Part shown: one piece after another, positions 4,605 through 27,046 of the stretch
Layout: each line of letters opens with the position of its first letter
How positions within the stretch are numbered: position 1 is the stretch's first letter
Origin: Candidatus Saccharimonadota bacterium
GTDB taxonomy: Bacteria; Patescibacteriota; Saccharimonadia; Saccharimonadales; Saccharimonadaceae
Direction of reading: 5' to 3'
Length of the DNA: 32,000 nt
Assembly: GCA_001897305.1 (NCBI GenBank)
Contig: MKSO01000001.1
Span: 420,001 to 452,000, forward strand
The notes under the pieces: generated by a model
What the model saw: only the letters and a program-made list of their open reading frames with translations
What the model was told of the DNA's origin: nothing
The model's database searches: none
Made by a program: the position numbers and the translations under genes

Positions 4605-5123
4605 CTAGAGAGCGGCTTCGACTGCCGCCCAGGTGGCTTCTTGGTTGTCGGTCGGTACAATAATGGTAACTTGGTCACCGATATTAATACGGAAATAAGT
4701 AACGCTGGCAAGAAGGATACGGTATTCACGGCCGTTTGCTTCAACGTAGTAAGCGCCATCGTGCTGTGTGAGGGTTCCAATGACCTGGGTTCGCTCGACT
4801 GGGCCAATTTGCTTGTAGATGAAGCTGCCGTCGTCGGCGATAGTAAGCTTGAGGATGTCCCCTTCTACAAGTTTTGATTTACTAGCGTAATTTGCGGGTA
4901 CTGGGTATTCTTTGCCGTCAGGGCCAGCCATTTTTTGGCCGTCAAAAACGCCTTCAATAACTTTACCGCCAACCTCTTCAAGGGGGCTTCCTTTAGGGGT
5001 GATAATGGCACCATCGTCACCAATAATGCTAATAAGCAGCTCTTTAGCGGCCGCTAGGTTTGTCTCTGCTTCTTGAATGAGAGCATGGAGGCGCTTTGCT
5101 TGTTTCTCCGGTAGTTCAGACAT
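4605..5123 (-). CDS. hypothetical protein (N-terminal helix plus beta-rich C-terminal part)
   Basis: 172-aa ORF with its own promoter and an AAGGAA SD-like element upstream of the ATG at 5123. No recognisable motif. Confidence 0.7.
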   Translation of the reverse strand: MSELPEKQAKRLHALIQEAETNLAAAKELLISIIGDDGAIITPKGSPLEEVGGKVIEGVFDGQKMAGPDGKEYPVPANYASKSKLVEGDILKLTIADDGSFIYKQIGPVERTQVIGTLTQHDGAYYVEANGREYRILLASVTYFRINIGDQVTIIVPTDNQEATWAAVEAAL

Positions 5124-5204: not shown

Positions 5205-5345
5205 CTAGTATAGGCTATTTCTTCAGGTTGAAAGTATTTTTATTTATCCACATCATTAACAGATACGAAGAACTAAACGTTGTTAAAAATGTATATTGCT
5301 ATGTTGCTAGCGCTTATTCTTAAGATTAGGTACTATAGTAGTACT

Positions 5346-7604
5346 GTGAGTAACCTTTTGCGCTATAGGTATTATGAAAGAGCTTTTGCACTCCCTACTG
5401 TTTTGATTGCCTCAACAGTCATGCTTCTTATTCTTGCTACTACCCTTGTGTCTGTGACCTCGGGCGTGGCGGTTACATTGGCAAATCGACACTACAATAC
5501 CTATGCGAAGTCTGCTTCCGAAAGCGGCCTGGCCATGGCTCAGGCTTGCCTTAAGGCTAATGACTATACTCCGCAATGGTCTGACGCGTCGCCATTGCGG
5601 CCAAATACGAACTGTAGTGGTGTCGTTCAGGCGACGGTCTCGCCGTATGTATACGATGACGGAACAATACAAACATCATTTACAATAGGTAGCCCTACGG
5701 ACCTTGCGAACGGTGTGCAGCGGGTTGTTGTTCAAGGTCGAGCAAACCTAATCCGCACCAGCACTGCACAAGTATGGCAAACATACAATAATTCAACTTA
5801 TGCGACTATCTCGGGTCTTACATCGTATGATGGTGTAACGTTTGGATACGTGGGTAACCAGGGTGCATTTTTTGGCACCGTTGATCCACGGGGTACGGTG
5901 GCTGCATTAGGGTTTAATGGTCAGGGCCAGCTAGGGAATGGCACTACTACGAGCGCCACAACACCACGACCTTTTATCTTGCCCGATGGAAAATATGCCG
6001 CTTCTTTATTTACAAGCTTCCTATCGGTCGGGTACAACATGTTTGCAATTACGACGACAGGAGAGCTGTATGGCACTGGAAGTAACGACTGGGGTGAGAT
6101 TGGCAACGGTACTACTACTACACCCATAACAACGCCGGTGAAATACAATTTACCAGCAGGAGTTCAGGCAAAATATGTCGCTATCTTGGACAGTGCTTCA
6201 TTTGTTATTGGAAGTGATAATAACGTGTACGCAAGTGGTAATTGCCAAAGGGGTCAGCTGGGTACAAATTACACTATCGCTGGATGTGTTAATCGCTCGA
6301 CGCCAACCCGCGTTGCTTTACCAACCCCAACTTCTGACTTAAATACACAACCAGTTCCATCAAGTGATTGGCTGCAGTCAACCAACATGGCCGCCGACCG
6401 CTATAATGTTATTTTGCGCATGCAGGGAGGCCGTGTGTATGGATGGGGCGCAAATGAATTTGGGCAGTTAGGCAACAACTCTAACACAGACTCTTCAGTT
6501 CCCGTCCAGATTGGTCAATTCGGAAATGCCGGCCAACCGAAAGCTATCCAAGTGGCGTACGATGGCGAAGCAACATGGATTCTTGACTCTAATGGTGAGG
6601 TATGGGCTGCGGGACAAGATAATTACGGTCAGCTGGCGGTTAATACTACCCTTCGAACCCCTGACCCATGGAAATGCATAGACAATTACAGCAACTCGGT
6701 ATCGAACGGTAATGCAATCGTAATTCATACCTGCAATGGAACCGCTGCCCAAGATATTTACTTTGAATCAGATAACACTATTCGCTTTCAGATCAATGCT
6801 ACGACGGTAAAATGTTTAGATAATTCCGCTGGCGGCAGTGCAAACGGGAATAAGATACAACTGTGGGACTGCGATTCTTCCAACCCAAACCAAAAGTGGG
6901 TCATGAGGGATGATCAAAATATCGTTAACCCTGCTACGGGTAAATGTTTGGACAATCCTTCCGACGGAAGGACCGACGGCACAGCACTTCAGCTATACGA
7001 CTGTAATAGCGGAAACGCTCAAAATTGGAATATCATTCATGTCAGTAATCTTAAAAAGGTGCACTTACCGTCTGGGCAAGGTAAAGTAACGCGCATCACA
7101 ACTGACCAGTACACTACATTTTACCTGATGGAAAACGGAACTATTTGGGGTGCAGGAAGAAACGAACTTGGCCAGCTCGGTATTGGTACGAGTAGTATAT
7201 ATAACCCTTATTTACGCAAAATGAATCTGCCCGCAGGAAGAACCGCTAAAGAATTCTACACGACTTCTACGGGTGCACCGTGGGCGTCATGGTACTCTGC
7301 TAATACCTACGCTGTTCTTGATGACGGCTCCGTATGGGGTGTGGGGTCTAACAACTATGGGCAGCTTGGTAACGGGACGACGACAGCTTACGAATCTTCT
7401 CCGAAGAAAATGAATATGCCGGCTGGCGTCAAAGCAAAAAGTGTACAAAGTGGTTTAGGTACGACAGTTATTCTAAGTGACGACGGTAAAATCTATACAG
7501 TGGGAAATAATACAAATGGCCAGCTTGGTGACGGCACAACTACAAACAGCTCTACGCCGCTTGCGCGAAAATACGTAAATGTTCGCCCGTTAATTCTTTA
7601 CTGA
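5346..7604 (+). CDS. PilX-like N-terminal pilin anchor fused to an RCC1-repeat beta-propeller with an inserted ricin-type (QxW)3 lectin domain; putative pilus-associated adhesin
   Basis: - **Extent:** the ORF is open from 5280 (TTG). The GTG at 5346 is favoured because it aligns with the paralog's GTG at 7656. ATG 5289 is an alternative.
- **N-terminus:** FALPTVLIASTVMLLILATTLVSV...AKSASESGLAMAQACL resembles the PilX N-terminal (minor pilin) domain.
- **Propeller:** eight RCC1-type signatures, such as GQGQLGNGTTT, NEFGQLGNNSN, NNYGQLGNGTT and TNGQLGDGTT.
- **Lectin:** a beta-trefoil with three Cys/QxW subrepeats (AQDIYF, NQKWVM, AQNWNI) at about 6668..7040. Confidence 0.85.
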   Translation: MSNLLRYRYYERAFALPTVLIASTVMLLILATTLVSVTSGVAVTLANRHYNTYAKSASESGLAMAQACLKANDYTPQWSDASPLRPNTNCSGVVQATVSPYVYDDGTIQTSFTIGSPTDLANGVQRVVVQGRANLIRTSTAQVWQTYNNSTYATISGLTSYDGVTFGYVGNQGAFFGTVDPRGTVAALGFNGQGQLGNGTTTSATTPRPFILPDGKYAASLFTSFLSVGYNMFAITTTGELYGTGSNDWGEIGNGTTTTPITTPVKYNLPAGVQAKYVAILDSASFVIGSDNNVYASGNCQRGQLGTNYTIAGCVNRSTPTRVALPTPTSDLNTQPVPSSDWLQSTNMAADRYNVILRMQGGRVYGWGANEFGQLGNNSNTDSSVPVQIGQFGNAGQPKAIQVAYDGEATWILDSNGEVWAAGQDNYGQLAVNTTLRTPDPWKCIDNYSNSVSNGNAIVIHTCNGTAAQDIYFESDNTIRFQINATTVKCLDNSAGGSANGNKIQLWDCDSSNPNQKWVMRDDQNIVNPATGKCLDNPSDGRTDGTALQLYDCNSGNAQNWNIIHVSNLKKVHLPSGQGKVTRITTDQYTTFYLMENGTIWGAGRNELGQLGIGTSSIYNPYLRKMNLPAGRTAKEFYTTSTGAPWASWYSANTYAVLDDGSVWGVGSNNYGQLGNGTTTAYESSPKKMNMPAGVKAKSVQSGLGTTVILSDDGKIYTVGNNTNGQLGDGTTTNSSTPLARKYVNVRPLILY

Positions 7605-7655
7605 TTCCCGGTCGCGCCTCGTCATTATTGAAGAAATTCGGTATTATAGAAGCAC

Positions 7656-9911
7656 GTGAAATTACTATCGAACAGTTTTTCAAAATCTGGTGGAGGTTTT
7701 GCACTCCCTACTGTTTTGATTGCCTCTACGGTTATGCTTCTTATACTCGCGACAACCCTCGTTTCTGTTACGTCGGGTGTTGCAGTTACTCTATCAAACC
7801 GACATTATAACTCGTATGCCAAAGAAGCTTCGGCTAGCGGATTGGCAATGGCGCAGGCCTGTCTGAAAGCCAATAACTATACGCCCCAATGGTCTGATGC
7901 CTCTCCTTTGCGTCCTAATACTAATTGTAGTGGCATCGTGCAGCCTTTGGTTTCTCCTTACGTGTACGACGACGGCACTCTTCAGACATCTTTTACTATT
8001 AACGAACCTACAAATCTTGCAAATGGTGTCCAGTGAGTCGTTGTTCAGTCAAAGGCTAATCTAATTCGTACAAGCACGGCTCAGGTATGGCAAACGTATA
8101 ATGATGCTGCCTATGCTACGATCTCGGGTGCGGTTTCATTTGATAGTATTACGTTTGGGTATGTAGGTGGCGGGAGTGCCTTCTTCGGTATCATCGACCC
8201 GCAAGGAAGCGTATCGGCTCTTGGCTATAATGCACAGGGTCAATTAGGTAACGGTACTACGACAAGCGCAACATCACCCCGTAATTTTGTATTACCGGTA
8301 GGCCTTAGGGTAAGTAGTTTGTACAGTAACTTCTTGTCAGTCGGTAAAATGATGTATGCGATCACTACTGATGGTTCGATGTACGGGGCTGGCGCAAACG
8401 ATAGCGGACAACTTGGTAACGGGACATTCTCCACCACACAGTCGACACCCGTTAAATTTAACTTGCCCGCTGGTGTAAGTGCGAAGTATGTAAGTAATCT
8501 GGCAGACGCAACCTATGTTATTGCTAGTAACAATAATATTTATGCAGCCGGAAACTGCGCTTACGGCCAATTGGGAAGTAACTACACCATTTCAGGATGC
8601 AGCAACCAGGCTAACCCTGTGCGCGTTGCGCTTCCAACACCTACTGCATCGGACCCAAACACCTTACCTGTTGCAACCAACGATTGGCTGCAGTCCACGA
8701 ACTTGGCAACCGACCGTTCAAACGTGTATGTACGTATGCAAGGTGGCCGCGTCTATGGCTGGGGTGATAATTCCGTAGGCGAACTTGCCAACGGTACGCT
8801 TAATTCGTCGTCAGTACCGGTAAAAATAGGTACTTACGGTGATGCAGGGCAGCCAAAAGCCAAGCAAATTGCATTCGATGGCGATGTTATTTACATTCTT
8901 GGCGACGATGGAAAAGTGAATGCCGCAGGTATGAACATATTTGGGCAGCTTGGAGGAGCTGCTGCTCCGGTGGGAAGCAGTACTGGCTATTGTATCGACA
9001 ACGCTAACAACTCCCCATCCACTGGTACTCGTGTGCGTATTTGGGGGTGCAATAATTCAACCGCTCAGAAGCTTGAATGGAACTACGATGGTTCAATTAG
9101 GTTTAGCCCTGATGGCGTTAATGATCTGTGTATCGACAATGCAAATAGTGGCTCCGCAAACGGCAACCCTATTATTACGTATACTTGCAATGGAACAGGA
9201 GCGCAGAAATGGGAAATGCGCGATGACGGTAGTATCTACAATGCTCAGGTGAATAAATGTCTAGATAACCCGGGCAATTCACCTACTCAAGGCACAGAAT
9301 TACAGCTACATGATTGTAATGGCACGCCGGCACAAGTCTGGTCACTAAAACCTGCTATTACTCTCTCGACCGTTCCGATTCCGGCAAGCTCTGGCAGTGT
9401 CACGCGCATCACGGCCGACCAATGGGCAACATTGTATCTTACGCAAGACGGAAAGGTTTGGGGCGCAGGGGTTAATTATGCTGGTCAGCTGGGTAACGGG
9501 ACGCATAAAATATATAACCCAGCTTTAACACAGTTCCAGATTCCAGCCGGTAGAAAAGCTATTGATTTCTACACAACCAAGACGGGCGTGTATAGTACGC
9601 TTGAGGCTAATACGTACATAGTGCTGGATGACGGAAGTGTGATTGGCGCGGGAGGAAATTCATATGGACAGCTCGGTAACGGCACAACAACGAGTTACGA
9701 GGCATCACCTAAGAAAATGAATTTACCCGTTGGTGTTAAAGCGAAAAGTGTGCAGACCGGTTTCGGCACGACCGTTATACTCACGGAGGATGGAAAAATC
9801 TATACTGTAGGAAATAATAACTATGGCCAGTTAGGTGACGGCACGACTAACAACAGCTCAACACCCCTAGCTCGTCAATATATCAATACACGACCCCTCA
9901 TTCTTTATTAG
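7656..9911 (+). pseudogene. paralog of the PilX_N-RCC1-ricin gene, interrupted by one in-frame TGA (fragments 7656..8036 and 8037/8319..9911)
   Basis: Both ORF-track pieces are in the same frame (8319-7656 = 663). The stretch 8037..8318 is open and homologous to the paralog (VVVQSKANLIRTSTAQVWQTYN... versus VVVQGRANLIRTSTAQVWQTYN...). The TGA at 8034..8036 aligns with CGG (Arg) in gene 1. It is otherwise intact, with RCC1 motifs and a ricin domain (AQKLEW, AQKWEM, AQVWSL) at about 8984..9350. Confidence 0.8.
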
Positions 9912-9914
9912 CAT

Positions 9915-10355
9915 ATGCGGTATAATCACTATAAGAATATGAAAAATATACCAAGACGATCAGTCTCTCATGCAACGGGTTTTACGGCCGTCGAGCTTCT
10001 TATTACCTTATTCGTCGCGGCTATCTTTCTTTCTGCGGGATATATTTTATATAACGTAGTTGTGACGAGGAGCTCGGAAGCAAGGCATCAAATTGAAGCC
10101 GACTCCATCGCGACCGATTATCTGCAGCGCTACCGCTCGCTGGTGAGTACGGCTTGTGTCGAATCAACGCCACTAATAAACTCCCCTGTCAGTGGTACTG
10201 ATGCAGCGAGTTTGGCTTCACCTAAAGTGTCTGTTACTATTTCCTGCCCAATACCAGCTCTCTCGAGCATTTCTAAGATTTCAGTAAAAGTAGATTACAA
10301 AGAAGGTGGTACAAATGAATCGGTACAACACGAGGCCTATGCGTCACGACCGTAG
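9915..10355 (+). CDS. type IV pilin-like protein (prepilin-type N-terminal cleavage/methylation motif)
   Basis: It carries the motif ..HATG|FTAVELLITLFVAAIFL, with Glu at +5 after the predicted cleavage site. An alternative start is ATG 9939, giving the leader MKNIPRRSVSHATG; it lies 12 nt downstream of a TATAAT at 9921..9926. Confidence 0.85.
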   Translation: MRYNHYKNMKNIPRRSVSHATGFTAVELLITLFVAAIFLSAGYILYNVVVTRSSEARHQIEADSIATDYLQRYRSLVSTACVESTPLINSPVSGTDAASLASPKVSVTISCPIPALSSISKISVKVDYKEGGTNESVQHEAYASRP

Positions 10356-11151
10356 TGGGTTTACTCTGGTTGAAATGTTAGTCATTTCTCCGCTTGTTAT
10401 CTTACTGATAGGTTCATTTATTTATGCCATAGTCGCCTTTACGGGTCAGGGTATGGCCGAGCGCGGCAAGGCGCTTCTTCTTAATGATGTACACGCCGCG
10501 CTTGATGAGATTGAGGATGACGTTGTGCTCAGTGGAGCCTTCCTCGCTACGAATAATCAAACCGTTAGCTCACCGCAGGGTGTGAATGATAATACGCAGG
10601 CTTTTGTGAGTAATACAACTGCCAATGCAACACTTATTCTTAACTCGTTCGCTACTACTGAGAGCCCGTCATCATCAACAAGAAGCTTAGTATACCTAAA
10701 CATTGCTTCTATCCCAAATGCCTGTGCTAATAAAACCCAGGCTATGACAATGAATGTGGTGTACTTTATTAAAAACAATTCACTTTGGCGCCGCACAATG
10801 ATGGTAGCTAATTATGCCTCTAAAGATTGTCCAAGCCAGACCATTTTTCAGCGGCCAAGCTGCTCACCCGGTGTGACGGGTACATTGTGCGAGACGCAAG
10901 ATGAGCAGCTCCTCGATGGAGTGCCTGATGGAGGCTTCTCAATCACCTACTATCCATCGGCATCCTCTGCTACACCTGTGACTGGTACGACCAGCAGCGA
11001 TAGTGCGGCTCGACAGGGGGCCCTAGACGCGGCCAACTCCATAAAAGTAACGTTAACTGCCAACGGTACTGCGGCGGGGCGTGATTTCACGCAGTCTGCA
11101 AGTGGCCGTTACACTAGGGCCGGCACGCTTATAAAGACAGCCACTCCTTAA
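10315..11151 (+). CDS. type IV (minor) pilin-like protein
   Basis: It carries the motif ..DRSG|FTLVEMLVISPLVILLIG, with Glu at +5. ATG 10315 is preceded by SD GAAGGTGG. It overlaps the upstream pilin gene by 41 nt. The large C-terminal domain is Ser/Thr-rich with 6 Cys. Confidence 0.85.
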   Translation: MNRYNTRPMRHDRSGFTLVEMLVISPLVILLIGSFIYAIVAFTGQGMAERGKALLLNDVHAALDEIEDDVVLSGAFLATNNQTVSSPQGVNDNTQAFVSNTTANATLILNSFATTESPSSSTRSLVYLNIASIPNACANKTQAMTMNVVYFIKNNSLWRRTMMVANYASKDCPSQTIFQRPSCSPGVTGTLCETQDEQLLDGVPDGGFSITYYPSASSATPVTGTTSSDSAARQGALDAANSIKVTLTANGTAAGRDFTQSASGRYTRAGTLIKTATP

Positions 11152-11664: not shown

Positions 11665-12189
11665 TTAACTGGTTGCTTTTGCTTCGACACCGTCGAGGAG
11701 CGCGTGCAAGTTGCCCGAAAGCGCGTTGGTAACGTCGTGAACCGGTGAAAGCAGTTGAGCAATAACTTCTGCAATGAGCTGTGACTTGCTTGGAAGTGCA
11801 GCCAGGGCTTTTACATCGTCGGCAGACAAAAGTCCGGCTTCGAGTGAAAGGCCACCAGCAATAACCAAAGCATCGTTGGTCTTTGCAAATTCGCTAAGTA
11901 CTTTAGCTGGCGCAACTTCGTCGTCGGTACCAATTGCGTAAAGCAATTGACCATTGAGCGAAGTAGTGTCAACATCCTTGTATTCGCTGATACCACCGAG
12001 GACAACGCGAACCAAACGGTTCTTGACGACCTTGATGATAACACCGTTCTCGCGAGCTTGTGCACGGAGGACTTGGAGTTGAGCAACGCTTAAGCCTTGG
12101 TAAGTAGCAAACGCAGTTGTTTTTGCGTTAGTTAGAAGCTCAGTAAATTCAGCAACCAATTCGTTCTTTTTATCGCGACTAATTGCCAT
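11665..12189 (-). CDS. rplJ: 50S ribosomal protein L10
   Basis: 174-aa ORF with a typical L10 N-terminus (KKNELVAEFTELL...YQGLSVAQLQVLR). SD AAGGAG lies upstream of the ATG at 12189. It sits directly upstream of rplL. Confidence 0.93.
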   Translation of the reverse strand: MAISRDKKNELVAEFTELLTNAKTTAFATYQGLSVAQLQVLRAQARENGVIIKVVKNRLVRVVLGGISEYKDVDTTSLNGQLLYAIGTDDEVAPAKVLSEFAKTNDALVIAGGLSLEAGLLSADDVKALAALPSKSQLIAEVIAQLLSPVHDVTNALSGNLHALLDGVEAKATS

Positions 12190-12400
12190 AAAAATCTCCT
12201 TGGTTTTTAACTATTCGACCAGATTGTTAATGGACAGACATTGGCAGTTGTAGCTTGGCTAGAAACTTTAGAAATAAAAAGAGTCTTTGGACCTCGCACT
12301 GCCAAAGACTACAGAAAATGTATGTTTTACATGTTCCTCGGTAGCGGATTAAGTGACGGCCTTGAGCATACTCTTGGCCATAACAGCTACTGTCTTTGGT
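12190..12400 (-). promoter_or_regulatory. rplJ 5' leader with alternative terminator/antiterminator pairings (L10-leader-like attenuator)
   Basis: On the minus strand, CCAAAGAC (12399..12392) can pair with GTCTTTGG (12309..12302). That GTCTTTGG can alternatively pair with a second CCAAAGAC (12290..12283) to form a terminator. The region is noncoding and lies directly 5' of rplJ. Confidence 0.6.
12272..12310 (-). terminator. leader (attenuator) terminator upstream of rplJ
   Basis: On the minus strand: AGTCTTTGG, an 11-nt loop, CCAAAGACT (9-bp perfect stem), followed by CTTTTTATTT. Confidence 0.6.
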
Positions 12401-12510
12401 ATGTCTAGGAGCAATTTTAACAGATGAGGCTCTAAAAAGCAAGGCTTTAACCAGTACTTATTCCATTAACTACCCTACTCTATACACTCTGGTATTTTTA
12501 AGGATTTAGT

Positions 12511-12518
12511 TGTATAAT
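12511..12518 (+). promoter_or_regulatory. extended -10 promoter (TGTATAAT) for the high-GC two-gene cassette
   Basis: TGnTATAAT sits in AT-rich DNA about 50 nt upstream of the ATG at 12571. SD GAGAGGAAG is at 12557..12565. Confidence 0.5.
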
Positions 12519-12570
12519 AAGTATTTGTTGCAAGTGAAATTCGTTTGCAATGAACCGAGAGGAAGTACCG

Positions 12571-12714
12571 ATGGATCAGAACACCACCACCGACGGCAGC
12601 AAAGTGGTCAAGCGTCTCAACGACCGTGCGCGTGAGCAAGCGCTACGGGATGCGGAAGACCCCTATGTTCCGCTGAGCGACCGCCTCGTCGACGACGGAA
12701 AGCCGGGTGTGTGA
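12571..12714 (+). CDS. small hypothetical protein (47 aa), high-GC cassette gene 1
   Basis: It is not on the ORF track because it is under 60 aa. The translation is MDQNTTTDGSKVVKRLNDRAREQALRDAEDPYVPLSDRLVDDGKPGV. It has an SD upstream and strong G/C bias at third codon positions. Its TGA shares one base with the next ATG (TGATG). Confidence 0.5.
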   Translation: MDQNTTTDGSKVVKRLNDRAREQALRDAEDPYVPLSDRLVDDGKPGV

Positions 12715-12953
12715 TGGCGTCCTGTCCGACTCAGACGTTGGAGGAGGCAGTCGATCGAGTGGTCGAAATCGCCGCCCGTGGTATGGACGCCGCTGAAGTC
12801 AAGCTGGCACTCAACAAGGTCGCCCAAGACCATGACATGGTGCCCACCGAGATCATGAAGGTCATTCGTCATCGTGATGAACGGGACGAATACGGCCCGC
12901 TGATCATCGCGAGCATGGGCTCAGCCAACCGTGCCATCCTGGGGATGATGTGA
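12714..12953 (+). CDS. small hypothetical protein (79 aa), high-GC cassette gene 2
   Basis: MASCPTQTLEEAVDRVVEIAARGMD.... Third codon positions are mostly G/C. The ATG overlaps the upstream stop codon. A GC-rich hairpin and a terminator follow. No recognisable motif. Confidence 0.6.
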   Translation: MASCPTQTLEEAVDRVVEIAARGMDAAEVKLALNKVAQDHDMVPTEIMKVIRHRDERDEYGPLIIASMGSANRAILGMM

Positions 12954-13025
12954 CTACATGGGTGGCGGGACGCACAGTGCTCGTCACCCATGTCACCCCC
13001 CGATACGTGGAACCCTCTCAACTAC

Positions 13026-13061
13026 GCCCTTCTCTGAAATGAGGAGGGCTTTCGCTTTATT
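13026..13061 (+). terminator. rho-independent terminator closing the high-GC cassette
   Basis: The stem is GCCCTTCTC/GAGGAGGGC (9 bp, one G-U pair) with loop TGAAAT, followed by the T-rich TTTCGCTTTATT. Confidence 0.6.
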
Positions 13062-13090
13062 AATATTTATGTTATAATTAAATTATTATT

Positions 13091-13996
13091 ATGTCTCTGC
13101 TTGAAACCGACTCAAATTACACCTACTCTGAAGACGATTTCGATGGGCATCACGCAGCCCCACTTCTTCTGATTGGCGAAGAGGAGAATGAGGAAGTTAA
13201 AAGTACACAAGATCGGTTTATTGACTCGATAAGCGCGTTGACTGAGTCTGAGATTTCCAAATATGCAAGTAGTCGTGTTGTTGGTTTTTCTGTTATGGCG
13301 ATAACGGCTCGTATTCATCAACGAGAGGCTCTTAATGCGAACAGCTACATACGGCGTCCATACAGGACGCCTTGTTATGACGAATTCCCAGATATGTCAT
13401 CGAGTGATATCGACGTTATTTGTGAAAAAGTTCGATATGGCCACGGTACTGCTATCGAAAATGAGATAGCAAGAGTAGCGCTTGGTATGGAATCGGTAGA
13501 GTATGGAAACCTTACTATTATTGGAGAGAAGCGAAAACAACTTGAAGAGTCGCTTTGGGGTGAAGTAAGTGAACTTGTTGGTAGAGATGCCAGCCCAAAC
13601 CCTGATGGAGTATATCGAATGAGTGTCCTCGGGTTTGATCGTGACATACGGTTGCCCGGGAACGTTAACTACGGTGCTATGCGTATCGGTCTCAAGCGTC
13701 ATGTGGGTACAACCCCTTATGGCGCTACTGTAAAAAACCGTACAACCGCAATTATTAATACCAGCACAGAAACTGGTATTGACCGTTCGTTACGCGAACT
13801 TTTTAGGGAAACCGCTATTAAAGCCACTGCTCGAGACGAAGAGACGGGAGAGCCAAAAAATGAAATTGAGGGGCTCAATGCAATTACGCACTTACCAGAA
13901 TTTCAAAGGTGCGTGTATTGGCTTATGACAACCGACATTTCTGAAGGAATCGTTTTGGCGCGCAACGAAACAGTATATGGTATTCGAGCAAAATGA
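13091..13996 (+). CDS. hypothetical protein (acidic N-terminus, no recognised domain)
   Basis: 301-aa ORF at native (low) G+C. TATAAT at 13073..13078 lies 12 nt upstream of the ATG. No SD. Confidence 0.7.
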   Translation: MSLLETDSNYTYSEDDFDGHHAAPLLLIGEEENEEVKSTQDRFIDSISALTESEISKYASSRVVGFSVMAITARIHQREALNANSYIRRPYRTPCYDEFPDMSSSDIDVICEKVRYGHGTAIENEIARVALGMESVEYGNLTIIGEKRKQLEESLWGEVSELVGRDASPNPDGVYRMSVLGFDRDIRLPGNVNYGAMRIGLKRHVGTTPYGATVKNRTTAIINTSTETGIDRSLRELFRETAIKATARDEETGEPKNEIEGLNAITHLPEFQRCVYWLMTTDISEGIVLARNETVYGIRAK

Positions 13997-14036
13997 TACG
14001 CTAGACGCGCCTAGTGCTGTGTATTAGACTAAACCT

Positions 14037-20569: not shown

Positions 20570-21595
20570 CTAACTTACGAAGTTTTCTACCTTAACGCCA
20601 GGGCCCATAGTAGTGCTGACGGTAATAGTCTTTACGTAGCCACCCTTAAGGCTTGATGGTTTTTGACCCTGGAGGCTTTCGAAGAATGCCTTAGCGTTTT
20701 CAACGAGCTTAGCGTCGCCGAAGCTTACCTTACCAACAGCAAGGTGAACGATGGCCTGCTTATCAACACGGTATTCAACTTTACCGGCTTTAGCTTCAGT
20801 AACAGCCTTGGCAACGTCAGTCGCAACTGTACCGCTCTTAGGGTTAGGCATGAGGCCACGTGGACCAAGCAGACGAGCGTACTTACCAAGCTTAGGCATG
20901 TATTGAGGGGTTGCAACAAGAATGTCGAAGTCGAGGACTTCTTTGTCGAGTTGTGCAAGGAAAGTTTCGTCACCAACAACATCAGCACCAGCATCTTTAG
21001 CTGACTTGTGGTCTGCTTCAGGGGCAAACACAGCAACACGGATTGTTTTACCAGTACCATGAGGCAGGCTCACGGTTGCACGGATGTTTTGGTCGGCTTG
21101 GCGAGGGTCAACGTTCAAACGAACGTGGAGTTCAACGCTGGCATCAAACTTAGAAGGGTTTGTCTCGGCAGCGAGTTTGATAGCATCTTCAAGTGAGTAC
21201 AGTTTTGCAGTATCTACTTTTTCGGCTACCTTGCGGTAGTTTTTGCCACGGCGTTCAAGAATAGGGCGAGTCACTGGCTTTGGACCCTTTTTAACGACTT
21301 CTTCAGAACCGTCTTGTGGGGTGGTGTCACCAGCTTCCTTGCGAAGTTCTTTTTCAACCTTTGCTTCAGCTTCGGCTACTGCTTTAGCAGAACGCTTACC
21401 AGCTTTTGCAAAAGTTTCTTCTTTTTCAGCTACTGCAACTTCAGCTTCGGCGTCAACGACTGCTTCTTCGGTTGTTGGTGCGCTAGCTTCGGCGGCGTTA
21501 GCGATCGCAGCTTCAATCTCTGCAATAGTGTTTTTTTCGCTCACTTCAAGACCAAGCTTTGAAGCTTCTGCGAGTAAATCGGCTTTCTTTGCCAT
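20570..21595 (-). CDS. rplA: 50S ribosomal protein L1 with a ~125-aa N-terminal extension
   Basis: The canonical L1 core starts at [25 protein letters not shown]...LPHGTGK...[13 protein letters not shown]. In-frame upstream sequence from the ATG at 21595 ([31 protein letters not shown] plus an Ala/Glu-rich linker) precedes it. The track's start at 21685 runs into the promoter and leader and is rejected. Confidence 0.88.
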
Positions 21596-21673
21596 GTAGG
21601 TATAAACCCTTTCTGTGGTACGAGCGGCTTCGTATTGTACGATAGCCTCCCAACATTGATTTGGTATACCCTT

Positions 21674-21682
21674 ATTATAGCA
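21674..21682 (-). promoter_or_regulatory. extended -10 promoter TGCTATAAT for rplA
   Basis: TGCTATAAT on the minus strand lies about 78 nt upstream of the ATG at 21595. The same 9-mer occurs upstream of rplK. Confidence 0.5.
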
Positions 21683-21757
21683 CAAATTTTATAGAAATAC
21701 CAGTGGATACCCGTTGTGCTTGTGTTAGGTGTAGATAAGCGTATTATTGAGTGAACT

Positions 21758-22720
21758 ATGTCAACGTCTGAATCAATGACTGCTAAAAACACCTTTGATA
21801 TTGTTCGCCCGTTTGCTCAGCAAATATCTGAGCGTCTAGACGTACAAATATTGGGCGGCGTAGGCACTGCTGCCTTAGAAGATCCGCGCTCAGAAATAGA
21901 CTTTTACAGGGGTGAGGTATATACCCCTACTGACATATATCAATCGTCTTTACGTGATGATGGCACACTTCGTGATATTGATGTTCTTTTACTTTCAAGT
22001 GACCCAAATAAGGTTGCCGAACTCGAAGCGGACCTAGAGCAAACTGTAGGCGATGATCTACAAAGAGAGGTCTTTCCGGTACGTCCCTATACTATAATCA
22101 GCGAACAGATGGCCCGACCATTTGGTGGAAGGGTGCTTCGAACGTTTGTATCAGACCGCTATGATAGTGCACCCGGTTCTGACGAAGCGTATATAAAGGC
22201 CCTCTTTCCTTTTGCCGTCCCAATTGATCCCACTTCTTTAATACCCTGGACTGTCATTACTGCCGATGGTACCCGCATTCCTATTCCGAACCCGGGTACA
22301 ACTATTACAAACTACACCAATCGATCTATCAGCGGACTACGGTATAAAGACACCGATAAGATGACCCGTATCGCCCACAGTATGCTTGAAATAGCCCCCG
22401 AGATGCGTGAGTGGATTATGGATGGGCCAGGTGCATCTCAGCTAGAGCTGAGTCGGCTTATCGCTTCACTCCATACCCCTGGACAGGCTAACTATCCGCT
22501 AGTTGATGGTATTACCGTGAACACCTTGACTCATAAACAATTACGGGATAGTGAGCATTTTATGGTACCAGCTATGCCTGGGTTATTGCGCTATGAAGCA
22601 GTTGCTATGGCTGCTTTTAAATCGCGTCGCTTGCGATGGTTTGAAAAGCATGATTGGATTGTCACTAAGTGGCATCAGTACGGTGAGACTCGTGCCGCCG
22701 CAATAGTGAAAAACAGTTAG
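21758..22720 (+). CDS. hypothetical protein; weak resemblance to Pol-beta-superfamily nucleotidyltransferases
   Basis: 320 aa. ILGGVGTAAL ... GTLRDIDVLLL is reminiscent of the hG[GS]...DxD NTase signature, but the spacing is long. TATTAT at 21742..21747 lies 10 nt upstream of the ATG. No SD. Confidence 0.65.
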   Translation: MSTSESMTAKNTFDIVRPFAQQISERLDVQILGGVGTAALEDPRSEIDFYRGEVYTPTDIYQSSLRDDGTLRDIDVLLLSSDPNKVAELEADLEQTVGDDLQREVFPVRPYTIISEQMARPFGGRVLRTFVSDRYDSAPGSDEAYIKALFPFAVPIDPTSLIPWTVITADGTRIPIPNPGTTITNYTNRSISGLRYKDTDKMTRIAHSMLEIAPEMREWIMDGPGASQLELSRLIASLHTPGQANYPLVDGITVNTLTHKQLRDSEHFMVPAMPGLLRYEAVAMAAFKSRRLRWFEKHDWIVTKWHQYGETRAAAIVKNS

Positions 22721-23424
22721 TAATCTTCGGGGTTATATTTGTAGGTCTGTTCTTTGATAACATAGCTGTCGGCTTGTATCATATCAATGGTCTCTTGCAC
22801 CGAGCCAAATTGCTTGTCTTTTGCGTTAAACGCTTCAATAGTGAGCCATTCATTATGTTGACCTTCGGTGTCAATAAGTACGCCCTGCGGGTTAGCCCCC
22901 TGAATTAGGCAGAAATACTTATCCTCTAACAGTTCGTTACTGCGCGCATCATAGTCTAATTTATGATAGAACCCGACCACTCTTAAATCGGCGGTTAAGC
23001 CCGTTTCCTCTTTCAGCTCGCGGGCGCCGGCTTCGAGCATGGTCTCACCCCAACGTATCTTTCCTGTCATATGCCCCCAATAGCCGTAATAGGGCTGTTT
23101 GAGCCGTTGCTGCTGCAAATATTGGCCCTTCCTATTCTTCAATACAATGACGACCGATAGTTTAGGCTGCTTTTCAATAACCTGCTCGTCCGTATCCATG
23201 CGGTTAGCGTATTCTTTACCTTTTCGGGTAAGGGTGTAATCGCCGAGTGTTTTAGGAAGGTGCTGGATATAGCCCGATTTCACCAGTTGTTTTATGTGAA
23301 ACGTCGTACTGTCGCTTGTAAGACCACTTGTCTTTTGCAGTTCTGAAAACGAGGCTTTTGGGGCAAGGAGCAGCTTTTTTAATATATTCATTTGCGCTGT
23401 ATGCGCTTCGGCCTCATAGCTCAT
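22717..23424 (-). CDS. winged-helix DNA-binding domain fused to a Nudix hydrolase
   Basis: 235 aa. The N-terminal region is wHTH-like (MNILKKLLLAPKASFSELQKTSGLTSDSTTFHIKQLVKSGYI). It has a complete Nudix box, GKIRWGETMLEAGARELKEETGL. The start overlaps the NADAR gene's end by 11 nt, with SD GAGGAA. Confidence 0.85.
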   Translation of the reverse strand: MSYEAEAHTAQMNILKKLLLAPKASFSELQKTSGLTSDSTTFHIKQLVKSGYIQHLPKTLGDYTLTRKGKEYANRMDTDEQVIEKQPKLSVVIVLKNRKGQYLQQQRLKQPYYGYWGHMTGKIRWGETMLEAGARELKEETGLTADLRVVGFYHKLDYDARSNELLEDKYFCLIQGANPQGVLIDTEGQHNEWLTIEAFNAKDKQFGSVQETIDMIQADSYVIKEQTYKYNPEDY

Positions 23425-23905
23425 TATTGCGTAGTTCCTCTCGTAGCTTCATCCATACTTTACCAAGCTCATTGCGGCCTTGTCTATCAGCTCCCCACCC
23501 CCAGAAGCTATCAACGGGCGAATCTTCAACTAAGTACTCTTCGTTGGTTTGCAATAATTTACGGCGAACGTAGGGGTTTTGTTGTACTTTATGTCGGCAT
23601 ATTTCAAGCATTACATCCGCTTTTATATCTGGCCAATTTTTTCGCTGCTGTACTTTATTGCTCTGGGCGGTCTCAAAAGCTTCATGGGCTGAACGGGCGC
23701 CAGCAATGCGCTCTACCAGTTCTGGTGCTGTATCAAAAAAGCGTGCAGCCTGATAGGCATGCTCCGAGGTTGGCCAGCACCTTCCCTTCCAGTCAACCTG
23801 AAAGCTGGAAAAATTAGAGAACACGTAAAACTCGCGCTCGTAGAACCCCACAATAGATCCATCAGTCATAAGTTGAGGGTCACGAAATTGTGTAATAGTA
23901 CTCAT
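23414..23905 (-). CDS. NADAR (YbiA/DUF1768) family protein
   Basis: 163 aa. FSNFSSFQVDWKGRCWPTSEHAYQAARF and DSFWGWGADRQGRNELGKVWMKLR are characteristic NADAR motifs. SD AAAGGAG lies upstream. Confidence 0.85.
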   Translation of the reverse strand: MSTITQFRDPQLMTDGSIVGFYEREFYVFSNFSSFQVDWKGRCWPTSEHAYQAARFFDTAPELVERIAGARSAHEAFETAQSNKVQQRKNWPDIKADVMLEICRHKVQQNPYVRRKLLQTNEEYLVEDSPVDSFWGWGADRQGRNELGKVWMKLREELRNNEL

Positions 23906-24026
23906 AGAACTCCTTTGTTACAGTCCGTCTTAGCATAGGGTGTAAGAAAGTTTGTATCTAGTGAAGTGTACTTCTGTAACGAAAAAGCTTGCGCTCCCCC
24001 GTTAATGAGCTTATGATTAAACCAGT

Positions 24027-25691
24027 ATGAAAGAGTTGAAAGAAAAATTACAGAGTATTGAGTTTAGTGGTGAGATAAAAGATAGCGATGAAGACCGTGA
24101 GTTTTACTCGCACGACGCTTCGATGTTTGAAATTAAACCAGAAGTTATTGCCGTACCAAAGTCGGCTGAAGATGTCGCTAAGCTTGTGAAGTTTGTGGCA
24201 GATAATAAAAAAGATAATCCAGAGTTATCATTAACAGCCCGTAGTGCTGGTACCGACATGTCCGGGGCGGCCATTAACGATTCTATTATTGTTGATTTCC
24301 AAACACATCTTAACCAGCTTATTGATATCGATAGCGCTCGAGCGGTTGTGCAGCCGGGTATGTTCTTCCGTGATTTTGATGCCGAAACGTTAAAGTTTGA
24401 TGCGCTTCTACCATCATACCCAGCCAGTCGCGACCTTTGTACGGTTGGCGGCATGGTAAATAACAACTCTGGCGGTGAAAAATCTTTGCAGTACGGCAAG
24501 ACCGATGACTACGTAACCGAGCTACAGTTTGTATTTGCCGATGGTGTAGAACGGACAGTAAAGCCACTCAACAAAGTTGAACTTGACGCCAAAATGGCCC
24601 AAGATGATTTCGAGGGTCGCGTGTACCGTGAACTGTATGAACTTATCGAAGCTAACTACGACACCATACAAGCCGCTAAGCCTCACGTAAGCAAGGATTC
24701 AACCGGCTACCACCTATGGAACGTCTGGAACCGTGAAACGGGCGTATTTGACCTTGCTAAGGCTATAGTTGGTGCGCAAGGGACACTCGGCTTCGTTACG
24801 CAGGCTCAGCTACGGCTGGTTAAACGTGAAAAACACTCCGGTTTACTAGTGATCTTCTTGCGAGACATCGATACACTTGGCGACCTGATCAAAACGGTCG
24901 TTAGCCACAACCCTGCTACCTTCGAGGGCTTTGATGACGCTACGATGCTGCTCGGCATGAAGTTTCTTCCAAGTTTCCTCACTTTCTTAGGGCCAGTGAA
25001 ATTTATTCACTTTCTTTTCTCGCTGATTCCTGAAGGCTTCCAGCTTCTCAAGGGCATCCCTAAACTCATTCTTATGGTTGAATTTACTGGTGATACCGAA
25101 GAGGAAGTTCGTGATAAAGTAAAAGCTCTACACCGCGACCTAGCTCCACACCGGGTACGCTACGAAATTAACGGTTTTGAAGAAGACCCTACCGAAGGTT
25201 CAAGTGAAAAGTTCTGGATTCTCCGTCGCCGCAGCTTCCAATTGCTTCGTAGCAAAGTTAAGGACAAGCACACAGCACCATTTATCGATGACTTTGTTGT
25301 TAACCCGGAACATCTTCCCGAATTCTTCCCTAAGATTCGCCAAATTATTAAAAAGTACAAATTGTTTGCGACGATTGCCGGCCACATGGGTGATGGAAAC
25401 TTCCATATTATCCCATTAATGAAGCTTGAGGACCCTAATGACCGCGCTAAGCTTGAGCCAGCTATGAAAGAAGTGAACAACCTCGTTCTGCAATACAAAG
25501 GTTCATTAAGCGGTGAGCACAACGACGGGTTAGTTCGTGGCCCATGGCTACAGCAAATGTACGGCGATGAAGTACTCGACTTATTCAAGAAGACAAAGGA
25601 TATCTTCGACCCAGAGCACATCTTTAACCCTCACAAAAAAGCTAACGCAACATGGGAATACAGCTTCTCGCATATTAGGGATCATTTCTAG
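24027..25691 (+). CDS. FAD-linked oxidase (GlcD/D-lactate dehydrogenase family)
   Basis: 554 aa. The FAD-binding PCMH-type region includes RSAGTDMSGAA and GGMVNNNSGGEKSLQYGKTDDYV. The C-terminal region has GSLSGEHNDGLVRG. Confidence 0.85.
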   Translation: MKELKEKLQSIEFSGEIKDSDEDREFYSHDASMFEIKPEVIAVPKSAEDVAKLVKFVADNKKDNPELSLTARSAGTDMSGAAINDSIIVDFQTHLNQLIDIDSARAVVQPGMFFRDFDAETLKFDALLPSYPASRDLCTVGGMVNNNSGGEKSLQYGKTDDYVTELQFVFADGVERTVKPLNKVELDAKMAQDDFEGRVYRELYELIEANYDTIQAAKPHVSKDSTGYHLWNVWNRETGVFDLAKAIVGAQGTLGFVTQAQLRLVKREKHSGLLVIFLRDIDTLGDLIKTVVSHNPATFEGFDDATMLLGMKFLPSFLTFLGPVKFIHFLFSLIPEGFQLLKGIPKLILMVEFTGDTEEEVRDKVKALHRDLAPHRVRYEINGFEEDPTEGSSEKFWILRRRSFQLLRSKVKDKHTAPFIDDFVVNPEHLPEFFPKIRQIIKKYKLFATIAGHMGDGNFHIIPLMKLEDPNDRAKLEPAMKEVNNLVLQYKGSLSGEHNDGLVRGPWLQQMYGDEVLDLFKKTKDIFDPEHIFNPHKKANATWEYSFSHIRDHF

Positions 25692-25699
25692 GAGGTACT

Positions 25700-26560
25700 A
25701 TGGACACTACCAAACCTGAGGCGCCAAAAAAGGATAAATTACAAAATGACGCATCGACAGAGCTAGACTCGGCAAACGCGCAGTCTCACCCGGCGACGAT
25801 ACGTAAATGGTTTTTCTATATTCTTATAGTTGGGCTTATTGTATCAGCGGTAATATCGATTATTGCTGTCTTGATAGGTGAAATTAACGATGTAGTAACG
25901 CGTGCCCTATGGACGACCTTTATAATGGTGCTCCACTCCTTGATAGCGGTTGGCTTACTCTCTATTTCGACAAATAAAAGAAACCCTAATGCGGACGAAG
26001 TGGCGCTCAATATACTCGTTGGGCTCACGATTGCCAGTTTCGTAAGCTCCGCTCTCGGTACTTGGGGAGTACTCTCGGGGGCCGTAGTGAGTGACCTTTA
26101 TAAACTCATCTTTTACGCACTATTCGCCGACTTATTGATTTTTATACTACTTCATTCACGCATGACGGACCGTGCAATTGCTCGTAGTGCTATGGCTTCA
26201 ATAGGCATAACGGTTGCTTTCTTTATCTACCTAATACCAAATGTCTTTACGAATAGCCTTAATTACACCCTGCCTGATATTTACAACCGGGGTGTTGCTG
26301 CCTTTTCGATTTTACTTTCGACTGCCGTAGTAATTACAATCGTTTTTCACTGGATATACAGAATAAAGCACGCTGATGAGCTTGAAAGTCAAGCCAACGC
26401 AGGCCAAGCCGATACTCAACTTTCAGAAGGATCAACACCAAAACAGACTATGCCATTATGGGCAAAGGTTGTACTTATTGTTGTTGGTATCGTATTCGGA
26501 CTTCCTATTGTTATTGGAGTACTTGGAGGCTTGTTGGCGTTATTAACGCGCACCTTGTAA
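25700..26560 (+). CDS. polytopic membrane protein, unknown function
   Basis: 286 aa with about 7-8 hydrophobic helices. SD AGGAGG overlaps the oxidase's stop codon. Confidence 0.75.
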   Translation: MDTTKPEAPKKDKLQNDASTELDSANAQSHPATIRKWFFYILIVGLIVSAVISIIAVLIGEINDVVTRALWTTFIMVLHSLIAVGLLSISTNKRNPNADEVALNILVGLTIASFVSSALGTWGVLSGAVVSDLYKLIFYALFADLLIFILLHSRMTDRAIARSAMASIGITVAFFIYLIPNVFTNSLNYTLPDIYNRGVAAFSILLSTAVVITIVFHWIYRIKHADELESQANAGQADTQLSEGSTPKQTMPLWAKVVLIVVGIVFGLPIVIGVLGGLLALLTRTL

Positions 26561-26573
26561 TATGTATTGACAC

Positions 26574-26608
26574 TAAAATAACCTCCCATAGCGGGAGGTT
26601 ATTTTTTA
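26574..26608. terminator. bidirectional rho-independent terminator
   Basis: The stem is AACCTCCC/GGGAGGTT (8 bp perfect) with a 5-nt loop. It is preceded by AAAATA and followed by ATTTTTT. Confidence 0.8.
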
Positions 26609-26620
26609 CTCAGTATCAAC

Positions 26621-27046
26621 TTATTCGGTAACTTCAACGCCCATTGAGCGAGCAGTACCAGCGATGACTTTGATTGCACCCTCAAGATCAATAGCGTTAA
26701 GCTGATCCTTCTTGAGTTCGGCAATTTCTTGGAGTTGTGCTTTGGTAATTTTACCTACCTTGTCGCTGTGAGGCTTAGCGCTTCCTTTTTGGATGCCTAC
26801 CTTTTCACGAATCAGGTCGTCAACTGGCTGACCAAGTGACTTCCAGGCGAAGGTACGGTCTTCGAACACTTGAATGTGGACGATAACGTCTTTACCGTTT
26901 AGTTCTTTGGTTGCGTCGTTGAAGGGGTTAATGAAGTCCATCATGTTAAGACCCCACTGACCAAGTGTTGAACCTACTGGAGGACCAGCGGTTGCACGAC
27001 CGGCAGGGATGCGGAGCTTCAAGTTACCAATAACTTGCTTTGCCAT
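26621..27046 (-). CDS. rplK: 50S ribosomal protein L11
   Basis: 141 aa. MAKQVIGNLKLRIPAGRATAGPPVGSTLGQWGLNMMDF is a classic L11 N-terminus. Confidence 0.95.
   Translation of the reverse strand: MAKQVIGNLKLRIPAGRATAGPPVGSTLGQWGLNMMDFINPFNDATKELNGKDVIVHIQVFEDRTFAWKSLGQPVDDLIREKVGIQKGSAKPHSDKVGKITKAQLQEIAELKKDQLNAIDLEGAIKVIAGTARSMGVEVTE

Follow-up and report, generated by a model that had tools for sequence, protein, structure and literature searches.

A 32,000-nucleotide stretch of a Candidatus Saccharimonadota genome (contig MKSO01000001.1, positions 420,001 to 452,000; hereafter the window, in whose own numbering positions are given) contains a short GC-rich block that had been predicted, from the letters alone, to be a two-gene cassette of recent foreign origin. 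We found that this block is probably a bicistronic small-protein operon of one Saccharibacteria clade, and that it appears to occupy a conserved expression slot between the divergent rplJ promoter with its L10 leader on one side and a hypervariable gene on the other. This assessment covers the structure and evolution of the block, and its role is graded separately below. That the block is a real coding operon and not an artefact is nearly certain, and in all likelihood it is an old resident of the slot rather than a recent acquisition.

Maximum-likelihood segmentation delimited the block to 12555-13055, with 60.1% G+C compared with 37.5% in the surrounding kilobase and with sharp boundaries, in agreement with the abrupt shift on both sides that the original prediction described. 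Its hand counts of G+C (36/60 in 12601-12660, 39/60 in 12661-12720 and 20/60 in 13081-13140) all proved exact on recount. The top 440-bp window of all 32 kb starts at 12590 and has a G+C of 0.611, about 5 standard deviations above the mean (0.459, standard deviation 0.029), and the highest peak outside the block region reaches 0.539. The surrounding native DNA had been called AT-rich, which it is not, since it has 46% G+C and is AT-rich only in the intergenic promoter stretches beside the block. The G+C content at third codon positions (GC3), expected to be strongly biased, is 0.72 in each of the two small open reading frames (ORFs) versus 0.32-0.52 in all 33 other scored ORFs. When synonymous codons were redrawn from native codon usage, GC3 was 0.45 +/- 0.04 and 0/5000 draws attained the observed value, therefore the anomaly sits at silent sites and not just in amino-acid content. 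Composition and codon usage are atypical for the host (G+C 0.60 versus 0.46), as would be expected of an acquired islet.

The two ORFs encode an acidic protein of 47 aa (ORF1) and a predicted all-helical protein of 79 aa (ORF2), and they are joined at 12712-12716 by the TGATG overlap that had been noticed earlier. An alternative ORF1 start, the ATG at 12550 that is also used by gene callers, gives a 54-aa product. The ORF1 frame is open without indels in every intact allele; across 383 nt in four allele groups there are zero indels, and indels start right after the ORF2 stop. Allele pairs differ in ORF2 by 38-43 substitutions, of which 23-27 are third-position changes, and the ORF2 N-terminal motif CPTQTLEEAVDRV is unchanged in the alleles despite many synonymous changes. 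The ratio of nonsynonymous to synonymous divergence (dN/dS) is 0.10-0.34 for ORF2 and 0.27-0.61 for ORF1, which evolves faster. Judged from these substitution patterns, both proteins are under purifying selection yet evolving fast. High G+C suppresses stop codons and so can open long frames by chance, an antisense ORF of 85-96 codons is open as well, and the untranslated regions (UTRs) are better conserved than the ORFs, all of which would fit spurious ORFs in a structured non-coding RNA or an assembly artefact. This explanation is scarcely credible, however, given that substitutions are periodic in the annotated frames with dN/dS well below 1, that the ORFs lack indels, that Rfam returned no match for the cassette even at E <= 1, that the coding-region RNA has no excess structure over dinucleotide shuffles (z -0.4 on either strand) and that independent assemblies from several samples are concordant. 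The same coding signature rejects a structured RNA in place of protein-coding sequence for the ORF region, an outcome that the original prediction had listed as able to overturn it. The antisense ORF was also rejected, because its wobble position corresponds to ORF2 position 1, where changes are not in excess.

The two ORFs and their predicted single promoter and single terminator form a translationally coupled, self-contained transcription unit (Table 1). The extended -10 box postulated upstream of both ORFs is present (TGTATAAT); it is invariant in three divergent alleles (L004, L001 and L091) and recurs at the equivalent position in the sister modules L011, L012, L073 and L101. A simple -35/-10 scan gave this promoter no score because its -35 is weak. 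The inverted repeat in the 5'UTR, which we read as a 5'-terminal mRNA stem-loop, folds in RNAfold into a 14-pair hairpin (-12.2 kcal/mol, z -1.6). Within the carrier clade, the sole change in this stem is from G.U to A-U; over six module types the stem is retained although both partners differ in 4/7 pairs, and 0/500 shuffles reach its covariation score. The Shine-Dalgarno sequence is invariant in all alleles, and sister modules have GAGGAG at the same spacing.

On the 3' side, the GC-rich 9-bp inverted repeat that had been reported is present at 12956-12993 (ACATGGGTG/CACCCATGT) but is part of a longer hairpin of ~18 pairs. The fold z of this 115-nt 3' region is -4.0. In the hairpin, compensatory double changes affect three pairs and G-C to G.U changes affect two, again with a covariation score above 500/500 shuffles. 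Such G.U pairs are functional only in the + strand RNA. The C/U-rich block between this hairpin and the terminator hardly varies among alleles with ORF differences of 16-35%, and it resembles an anti-Shine-Dalgarno sequence; as a small RNA with a target in the window it was rejected, no complementary target being found there. The terminator expected to close the unit was found by scan, and its stem is invariant in six sequences. Across alleles, identity is 89-94% in the promoter and 5'UTR and 86-92% in the 3' block and terminator, compared with 65-84% in the ORFs.

From this anatomy and its conservation we infer how the transcript would behave and what the proteins may do. Transcription would begin from the extended -10 box, with a predicted start near 12525 and predicted 3' ends at ~12996 and/or 13058, and yield an mRNA with the short 5' stem-loop first and the conserved hairpin and intrinsic terminator last; bracketing by stem-loops is typical of stable, insulated transcripts. 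The strong Shine-Dalgarno sequence would drive translation of ORF1, and ORF2 would be translated through termination-reinitiation at UGAUG. Because of this coupling the two products would be made together, and both would be small cytoplasmic proteins, probably acting as a complex. In addition, recombination that swaps the hypervariable neighbour may now use the cassette as its left homology arm.

Independent assemblies that cover at least six samples (loci L001-L006 and L087-L094; Logan, ENA and JGI assemblies) have the cassette at the same site, between rplJ and a ~300-aa gene; carrier samples include SRR20069385, SRR16203517, JGI 3300009416 and JGI 3300079877. The concordance of these assemblies excludes an assembly chimera, which had been named as another way in which the original prediction could fail. 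The carriers form four diverged allele groups (the window with L087 and L088; L004; L001; L091) and span at least three species-level lineages, with synonymous divergence (dS) of ~1-3.8 in flanking genes when rplJ, whose dS is only 0.17-0.34, is left out. The cassette has a G+C of 0.57-0.65 in every allele, and GC3 is 0.59-0.72 in the four alleles despite dS up to ~1.5. Compared with the window, L004 has flanks of 96-99.8% nucleotide identity (dS 0.01-0.14) and ORFs of 93.8% (ORF1) and 84.2% (ORF2, dS 0.71); L001 has flanks with dS 0.9-1.6 and a cassette with dS ~0.5; and L091 has flanks with dS above 1.8, a dihydrofolate reductase (DHFR) gene of 66% nucleotide identity and a cassette of 60% GC with dS 1.0-1.5. 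Cassette allele distances are decoupled from genome distances. The cassette was present in every carrier-clade member seen, including lineages with flank dS above 1.8, and a comparison with sister genomes showed it to be restricted to this clade, with ORF1 and ORF2 absent from 80/80 related species loci among the matches listed. Since the same site and GC are found in lineages with flank dS from 1 to above 1.8, the cassette is not recent. On these comparisons, it already existed before at least three species-level lineages diverged. The recent date that had been proposed therefore falls, and conservation with the same composition across the lineage, which had been stated as evidence against foreignness, is largely what was found.

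Homology between the window and L004 or L001 stops immediately past the terminator, and these two loci have unrelated 358-aa (L004) and 347-aa (L001) alleles in place of the neighbour gene. When window positions 12700-14036 were compared with L004:1186-2721, divergence climbed through the cassette toward the neighbour gene (301 versus 358 aa, unrelated). L088 is a mosaic within ORF2, being L004-like in 12705-12790 and window-like in the remainder. The simplest reading of these patterns is that the neighbour gene is swapped by homologous recombination within species, with the cassette (left) and DHFR as likely arms. At the equivalent of 12705, L089 has a 1-nt deletion in a G-run that produces an 81-aa frameshifted ORF1 and an ORF2 cut to 56 aa, and an intact copy, L006, came from the same JGI sample; the frameshift represents either a knockout that exists in nature or an error in sequencing.

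The same slot in sister Saccharibacteria contains an overlapping pair of 67-aa and 98-aa ORFs in L073, a 55-65-aa 'ETSED...G[HN]W' protein in L011, L012, L099 and L101, a 94-aa ORF in L095 and L096, a 97-aa ORF in L015 and a 112-aa ORF in L017, while L008 and L010 are empty and L013 has only the hairpin and terminator. The slot ORFs are mutually unrelated by BLASTP, hidden Markov model (HMM) and hhalign comparisons, and in each occupied slot the GC of the ORF differs from that of its locus by +0.04 to +0.19. Most modules share a frame that consists of the extended -10 box, a 5'UTR inverted repeat ~11 nt downstream and a GAGG Shine-Dalgarno sequence, followed on the 3' side by a post-stop G-rich hairpin (GGGTGG.../...CCACCC type), a terminator and the extended -10 box and near-leaderless ATG of the neighbour. 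Therefore, high GC is a recurrent property of the slot and not of this insert alone, and by these comparisons the slot has at least six unrelated ORF contents, that of the cassette among them, all of which are enriched in GC. The sister 'ETSED...G[HN]W' modules resemble the cassette in position, promoter type, 5' stem-loop, Shine-Dalgarno sequence, post-stop hairpin, terminator and GC enrichment, but they have one ORF instead of two and no detectable protein homology to it. A match by eye between ORF1 and these proteins (AEDPYVP/SEDFVP) was unsupported by HMM, with an hhalign probability of 0.06, and homology of ORF1 and ORF2 to the L073 pair was rejected for lack of any BLASTP alignment.

Our preferred but tentative explanation of the high GC is that GC-richer foreign DNA was captured into a pre-existing slot and has slowly ameliorated since. 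Outgroup-polarised substitutions comprise 23 GC-to-AT and 12 AT-to-GC changes, where the native regime predicts ~1.76:1. A 65%-GC thyX (Pfam Thy1; L008:1952-3043, + strand) was observed in the ~50%-GC locus of a sister species with an L10 identity of 87%, where it lies between rplA and dCTP deaminase/thymidylate kinase and replaces the thyA-DHFR set of the window; high-GC genes therefore do occur in the rplA-rplJ island. That thyX, the GC of 60% against 46%, the GC3 of 0.72 against an expected 0.45, the abrupt boundaries, the absence from the 80 related species loci listed and the excess of GC-to-AT over AT-to-GC substitutions would all also suit the earlier idea of a recent horizontal acquisition from a high-GC donor, either an actinobacterial host or its phage. 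We consider a recent transfer very unlikely nonetheless, because four allele groups share site and GC at flank dS from 1 to above 1.8, the searches of protein, phage, plasmid and viral collections gave no homologue, no integrase, transposase, tRNA or direct repeat was found, and the promoter, UTR and terminator match the native type seen in sister modules. A second explanation, less likely than capture but deserving weight, is that the DNA is native to a small-protein locus of fast turnover, in which either selection on the transcript or a recombination hotspot with GC-biased gene conversion keeps GC high. In its favour, GC enrichment recurs in all occupied slots of relatives with their unrelated ORFs, GC3 holds in the four diverged alleles, and recombination within the cassette is demonstrated. 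Yet the equally recombining neighbour gene and DHFR have a GC of 0.41-0.46, the coding RNA shows no unusual degree of structure, GC changes sharply at the boundaries, and the substitution spectrum leans GC-to-AT, as expected for decay and not for maintenance.

Several observations weigh against our interpretation of the block as an old operon that began as captured DNA. The GC-to-AT excess is not significant against 1:1 (p = 0.09). A foreign origin comes without a donor homologue in the searches described below and without an insertion scar or mobility gene in the window, and independent captures leave unexplained why each landing would be between the same UTR and hairpin. The absence from sister species holds for the 80 loci among the matches listed. 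The palindrome in the 5'UTR may instead work as a protein operator, since covariation of an inverted repeat is compatible with operator and RNA hairpin alike and its fold z is only -1.6. Finally, the ORF2 AlphaFold2 model considered below rests on a four-sequence alignment.

Both proteins are orphans; the original prediction had recognised neither. ORF1 and ORF2 had no match in Pfam, PHROGs, NCBIfam or PADLOC, and Pfam gave none for the ORF1-ORF2 fusion, the antisense ORFs or the sister slot proteins. An ORF2 profile run against 1.84 billion representative proteins returned only its own cluster, and a word-indexed search of 5.8 billion clusters with ORF1 and ORF2 returned only close relatives at the same locus. 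No cassette match was found in phages or plasmids by blastn and tblastn against INPHARED and PLSDB, nothing was found in IMG/VR scans with ORF1, ORF2 and neighbour-gene profiles, and a metagenome scan for the cassette yielded one identical locus. The five-helix AlphaFold2 model of ORF2 (predicted local distance difference test, pLDDT, 82) had no significant Foldseek neighbour in PDB or BFVD (E >= 0.9), and PDB profile searches gave nothing significant, the antitoxin FitA being reached by ORF2 at E = 1.1 and other entries above 0.3. A literature search on horizontal gene transfer and GC content in Saccharibacteria turned up nothing particular to this locus. The proposals of an actinobacterial donor and of a phage-derived module thus gained no sequence or, for BFVD, fold similarity.

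The fast evolution of the two proteins and their tight linkage to a gene that is hypervariable within species suggest a two-protein complex that may act in a conflict or host-interaction context tied to the variable neighbour, although we put this role forward only as a possibility. A more specific proposal, which takes up a resemblance noticed originally, is a type II toxin-antitoxin (TA) or addiction-like module in which ORF1 is a labile antitoxin and ORF2 the toxin, or the reverse, autoregulated through the palindrome at 12528-12550. Like the RelBE, FitAB and HicAB operons, the cassette has adjacent, co-oriented, overlapping small genes served by a single promoter and a single terminator, shows dyad symmetry close to the transcription start, is patchily distributed and lies next to a hypervariable gene, with recombination mosaics; in addition, ORF1 evolves faster than ORF2, and the best, non-significant PDB sequence match of ORF2 is to FitA. 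The cassette is without their sequence or fold similarity, however. No known toxin superfamily (RelE/ParE, MazF, VapC, HicA, Doc, HipA, Zeta, GNAT and others) and no antitoxin DNA-binding domain (ribbon-helix-helix, helix-turn-helix, AbrB or Phd/YefM) was detected, apart from the FitA hit at E = 1.1; neither Pfam, NCBIfam nor PADLOC returned a TA family, and the ORF2 model lacks a toxin fold. Covariation in the dyad is like that of an RNA stem, with G.U pairs tolerated, and the frameshifted variant L089 occurs in a natural sample. At 47 aa and 79 aa both proteins are also small compared with known type II pairs, which counts against this assignment. We regard a TA module as improbable.

Besides TA operons, the cassette resembles several other known systems in part. 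Its deviating GC and GC3, sharp boundaries, orphan proteins and restricted range are those of compositionally atypical ORFan islets, but no donor, mobility gene, att site, duplication or tRNA was found, the cassette is old and syntenic in several species, and the slot is GC-rich also in relatives with unrelated ORFs. Like stem-loop-bracketed mRNAs (the ompA and aprE leaders, and 3' hairpins of the repetitive extragenic palindromic (REP) type), it has a hairpin a few nucleotides from the predicted 5' end and a large conserved hairpin after the stop, followed by a terminator, and both stems covary; its 5' hairpin is energetically modest, and a stabilising role is suggested only by the position of the hairpins. 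The slot is also like integron cassettes in its fixed upstream promoter, exchangeable atypical ORF content and imperfect hairpin after the ORF, but it differs in having one unit per genome and no cassette common to genomes in different contexts. An attC-like site was rejected because the 32 kb contain no integrase and the hairpin, inspected by eye, has no R-box consensus. An IS200/IS605-like or palindrome-associated transposable element (PATE) was likewise rejected, the end hairpins being dissimilar and a transposase lacking.

In a ~1-Mb genome shorn of most non-essential DNA, a strongly signalled orphan two-protein operon that has long persisted beside ribosomal protein genes is unlikely to be junk. 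The cassette alone would be an ordinary lineage-specific ORFan operon, and the pattern of the slot is of greater interest, with unrelated, always GC-enriched ORFs framed by RNA elements that are better conserved than the genes. It is conceivable, if a long shot, that this is a dedicated hot-swappable slot in which a fixed frame repeatedly acquires GC-rich genes or generates them de novo, the inserts perhaps deriving from high-GC host DNA, and which together with its novel-fold neighbour would make up an undescribed conflict or host-interaction locus of the Candidate Phyla Radiation. If the locus does capture host DNA or is the site of an arms race, it bears on innovation and on host and phage interaction in episymbiotic Saccharibacteria; if not, it serves mainly as a caution against taking every GC anomaly as recent horizontal transfer.

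The window is unremarkable chromosomal DNA from a Saccharibacterium, the organism suspected at the outset; among the matches listed, the best for its L10 is 'Ca. Microsaccharimonas sp.' with 93%. The classical nusG-rplK-rplA-rplJ-rplL cluster is broken at two points. The cassette does sit inside the broken rplA-rplJ interval, with rplJ, rplL and the L10 leader directly to its left and rplA 8.4 kb away. This gap contains genes for a glycosyltransferase, thyA, a dCMP deaminase, a HIT protein, a cytidylyltransferase, an APH-like kinase, DHFR and the 301-aa neighbour, in addition to the cassette. The L10 leader and rplJ are predicted to be transcribed divergently from the cassette, whose promoter is ~95 nt from the leader. 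Domain and tRNA scans of the 32 kb found no tRNA, integrase, transposase or other recombinase domain, and the block is flanked by neither direct repeats nor a target-site duplication.

Table 1. Features of the cassette and its surroundings (window coordinates unless a locus is named).
Feature	Position	Strand	Details
rplJ	11665-12189	-	Downstream of the L10 leader; Pfam identifies L10 and L12
L10 leader	12268-12417	-	Rfam RF00557, 49.6 bits against a gathering threshold of 44
-35 box	12490-12495	+	TGGTAT, weak; accompanies TGTATAAT
Extended -10 promoter	12511-12518	+	TGTATAAT; predicted from sequence
5'UTR inverted repeat	12528-12550	+	TTGCAAgtGAAaTTCgtTTGCAA; repeat search
Shine-Dalgarno sequence	12557-12565	+	GAGAGGAAG; 5 nt upstream of the ORF1 ATG; read from sequence
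ORF1	12571-12714	+	47 aa, acidic orphan small protein
ORF2	12714-12953	+	79 aa, predicted all-helical orphan small protein
3' hairpin	12950-12996	+	Conserved; outer GUGAC/GUCAC helix takes in the ORF2 stop codon; loop variable
C/U-rich block	13007-13025	+	GTGGAACCCTCTCAACTAC (also GUGGAACCCUCUCAACUAC); almost invariant
Intrinsic terminator	13026-13059	+	9-pair stem GCCCTTCTC/GAGGAGGGC (13026-13049), then T-tract TTTCGCTTTA; terminator scan
Neighbour gene	13070-13996	+	Fast-evolving; ORF 13091-13996, 301 aa; own extended -10 TGTTATAAT at 13070-13078; near-leaderless start
Neighbour-gene relative	L004:1609-2685
Neighbour-gene relative	L001:10417-11460
Neighbour-gene relative	L008:4602-5696	-
Neighbour-gene relative	L073:3422-4522	-
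rplA	20570-21685

The hypervariable neighbour belongs to a family of 38 members with 38-99% identity that is confined to Saccharibacteria and has no Pfam match, and many relatives have a member at this site next to rplJ. Relatives also keep the gene's own promoter, and the extended -10 box (TGnTATAAT) lies only 7-17 nt before the ATG in the window (13070-13093), L004, L001, L073, L011-L013 and L095; its mRNA would therefore be leaderless or nearly so. The AlphaFold2 model of the protein (pLDDT 92.6, predicted template modelling score 0.89) found no fold match in the PDB with Foldseek (best E 0.2, template modelling score below 0.2), and by this model the protein may represent a new fold.

Some further variation was noted in the surroundings. 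In the L10 leader, 22 nt (12357-12378, - strand) are present in the window and L001 and missing in L004 and L091, which shortens one helix and leaves the rest conserved. The rplK-rplA junction is also split, by ~5 kb (window 20570-27046), and the insert contains an unannotated 320-aa ORF, genes for a winged helix-turn-helix-NUDIX protein, a NADAR protein and an FAD-linked oxidase, and an unannotated 286-aa ORF. The rplA product has an N-terminal extension of ~170 aa before its L1 domain. At 4605-5123 (- strand), a 171-aa ORF has a MazE/AbrB-type (SpoVT-AbrB) match at E 3.5e-4, which is sub-threshold by the Pfam cutoff. On the + strand, 5280-11151 encodes two large RCC1-repeat/ricin-lectin proteins (774 and 530 aa) and, after them, a pair of prepilin-type (N_methyl) proteins; these genes, which are variable between relatives too, look like candidates for pilus-associated adhesins.

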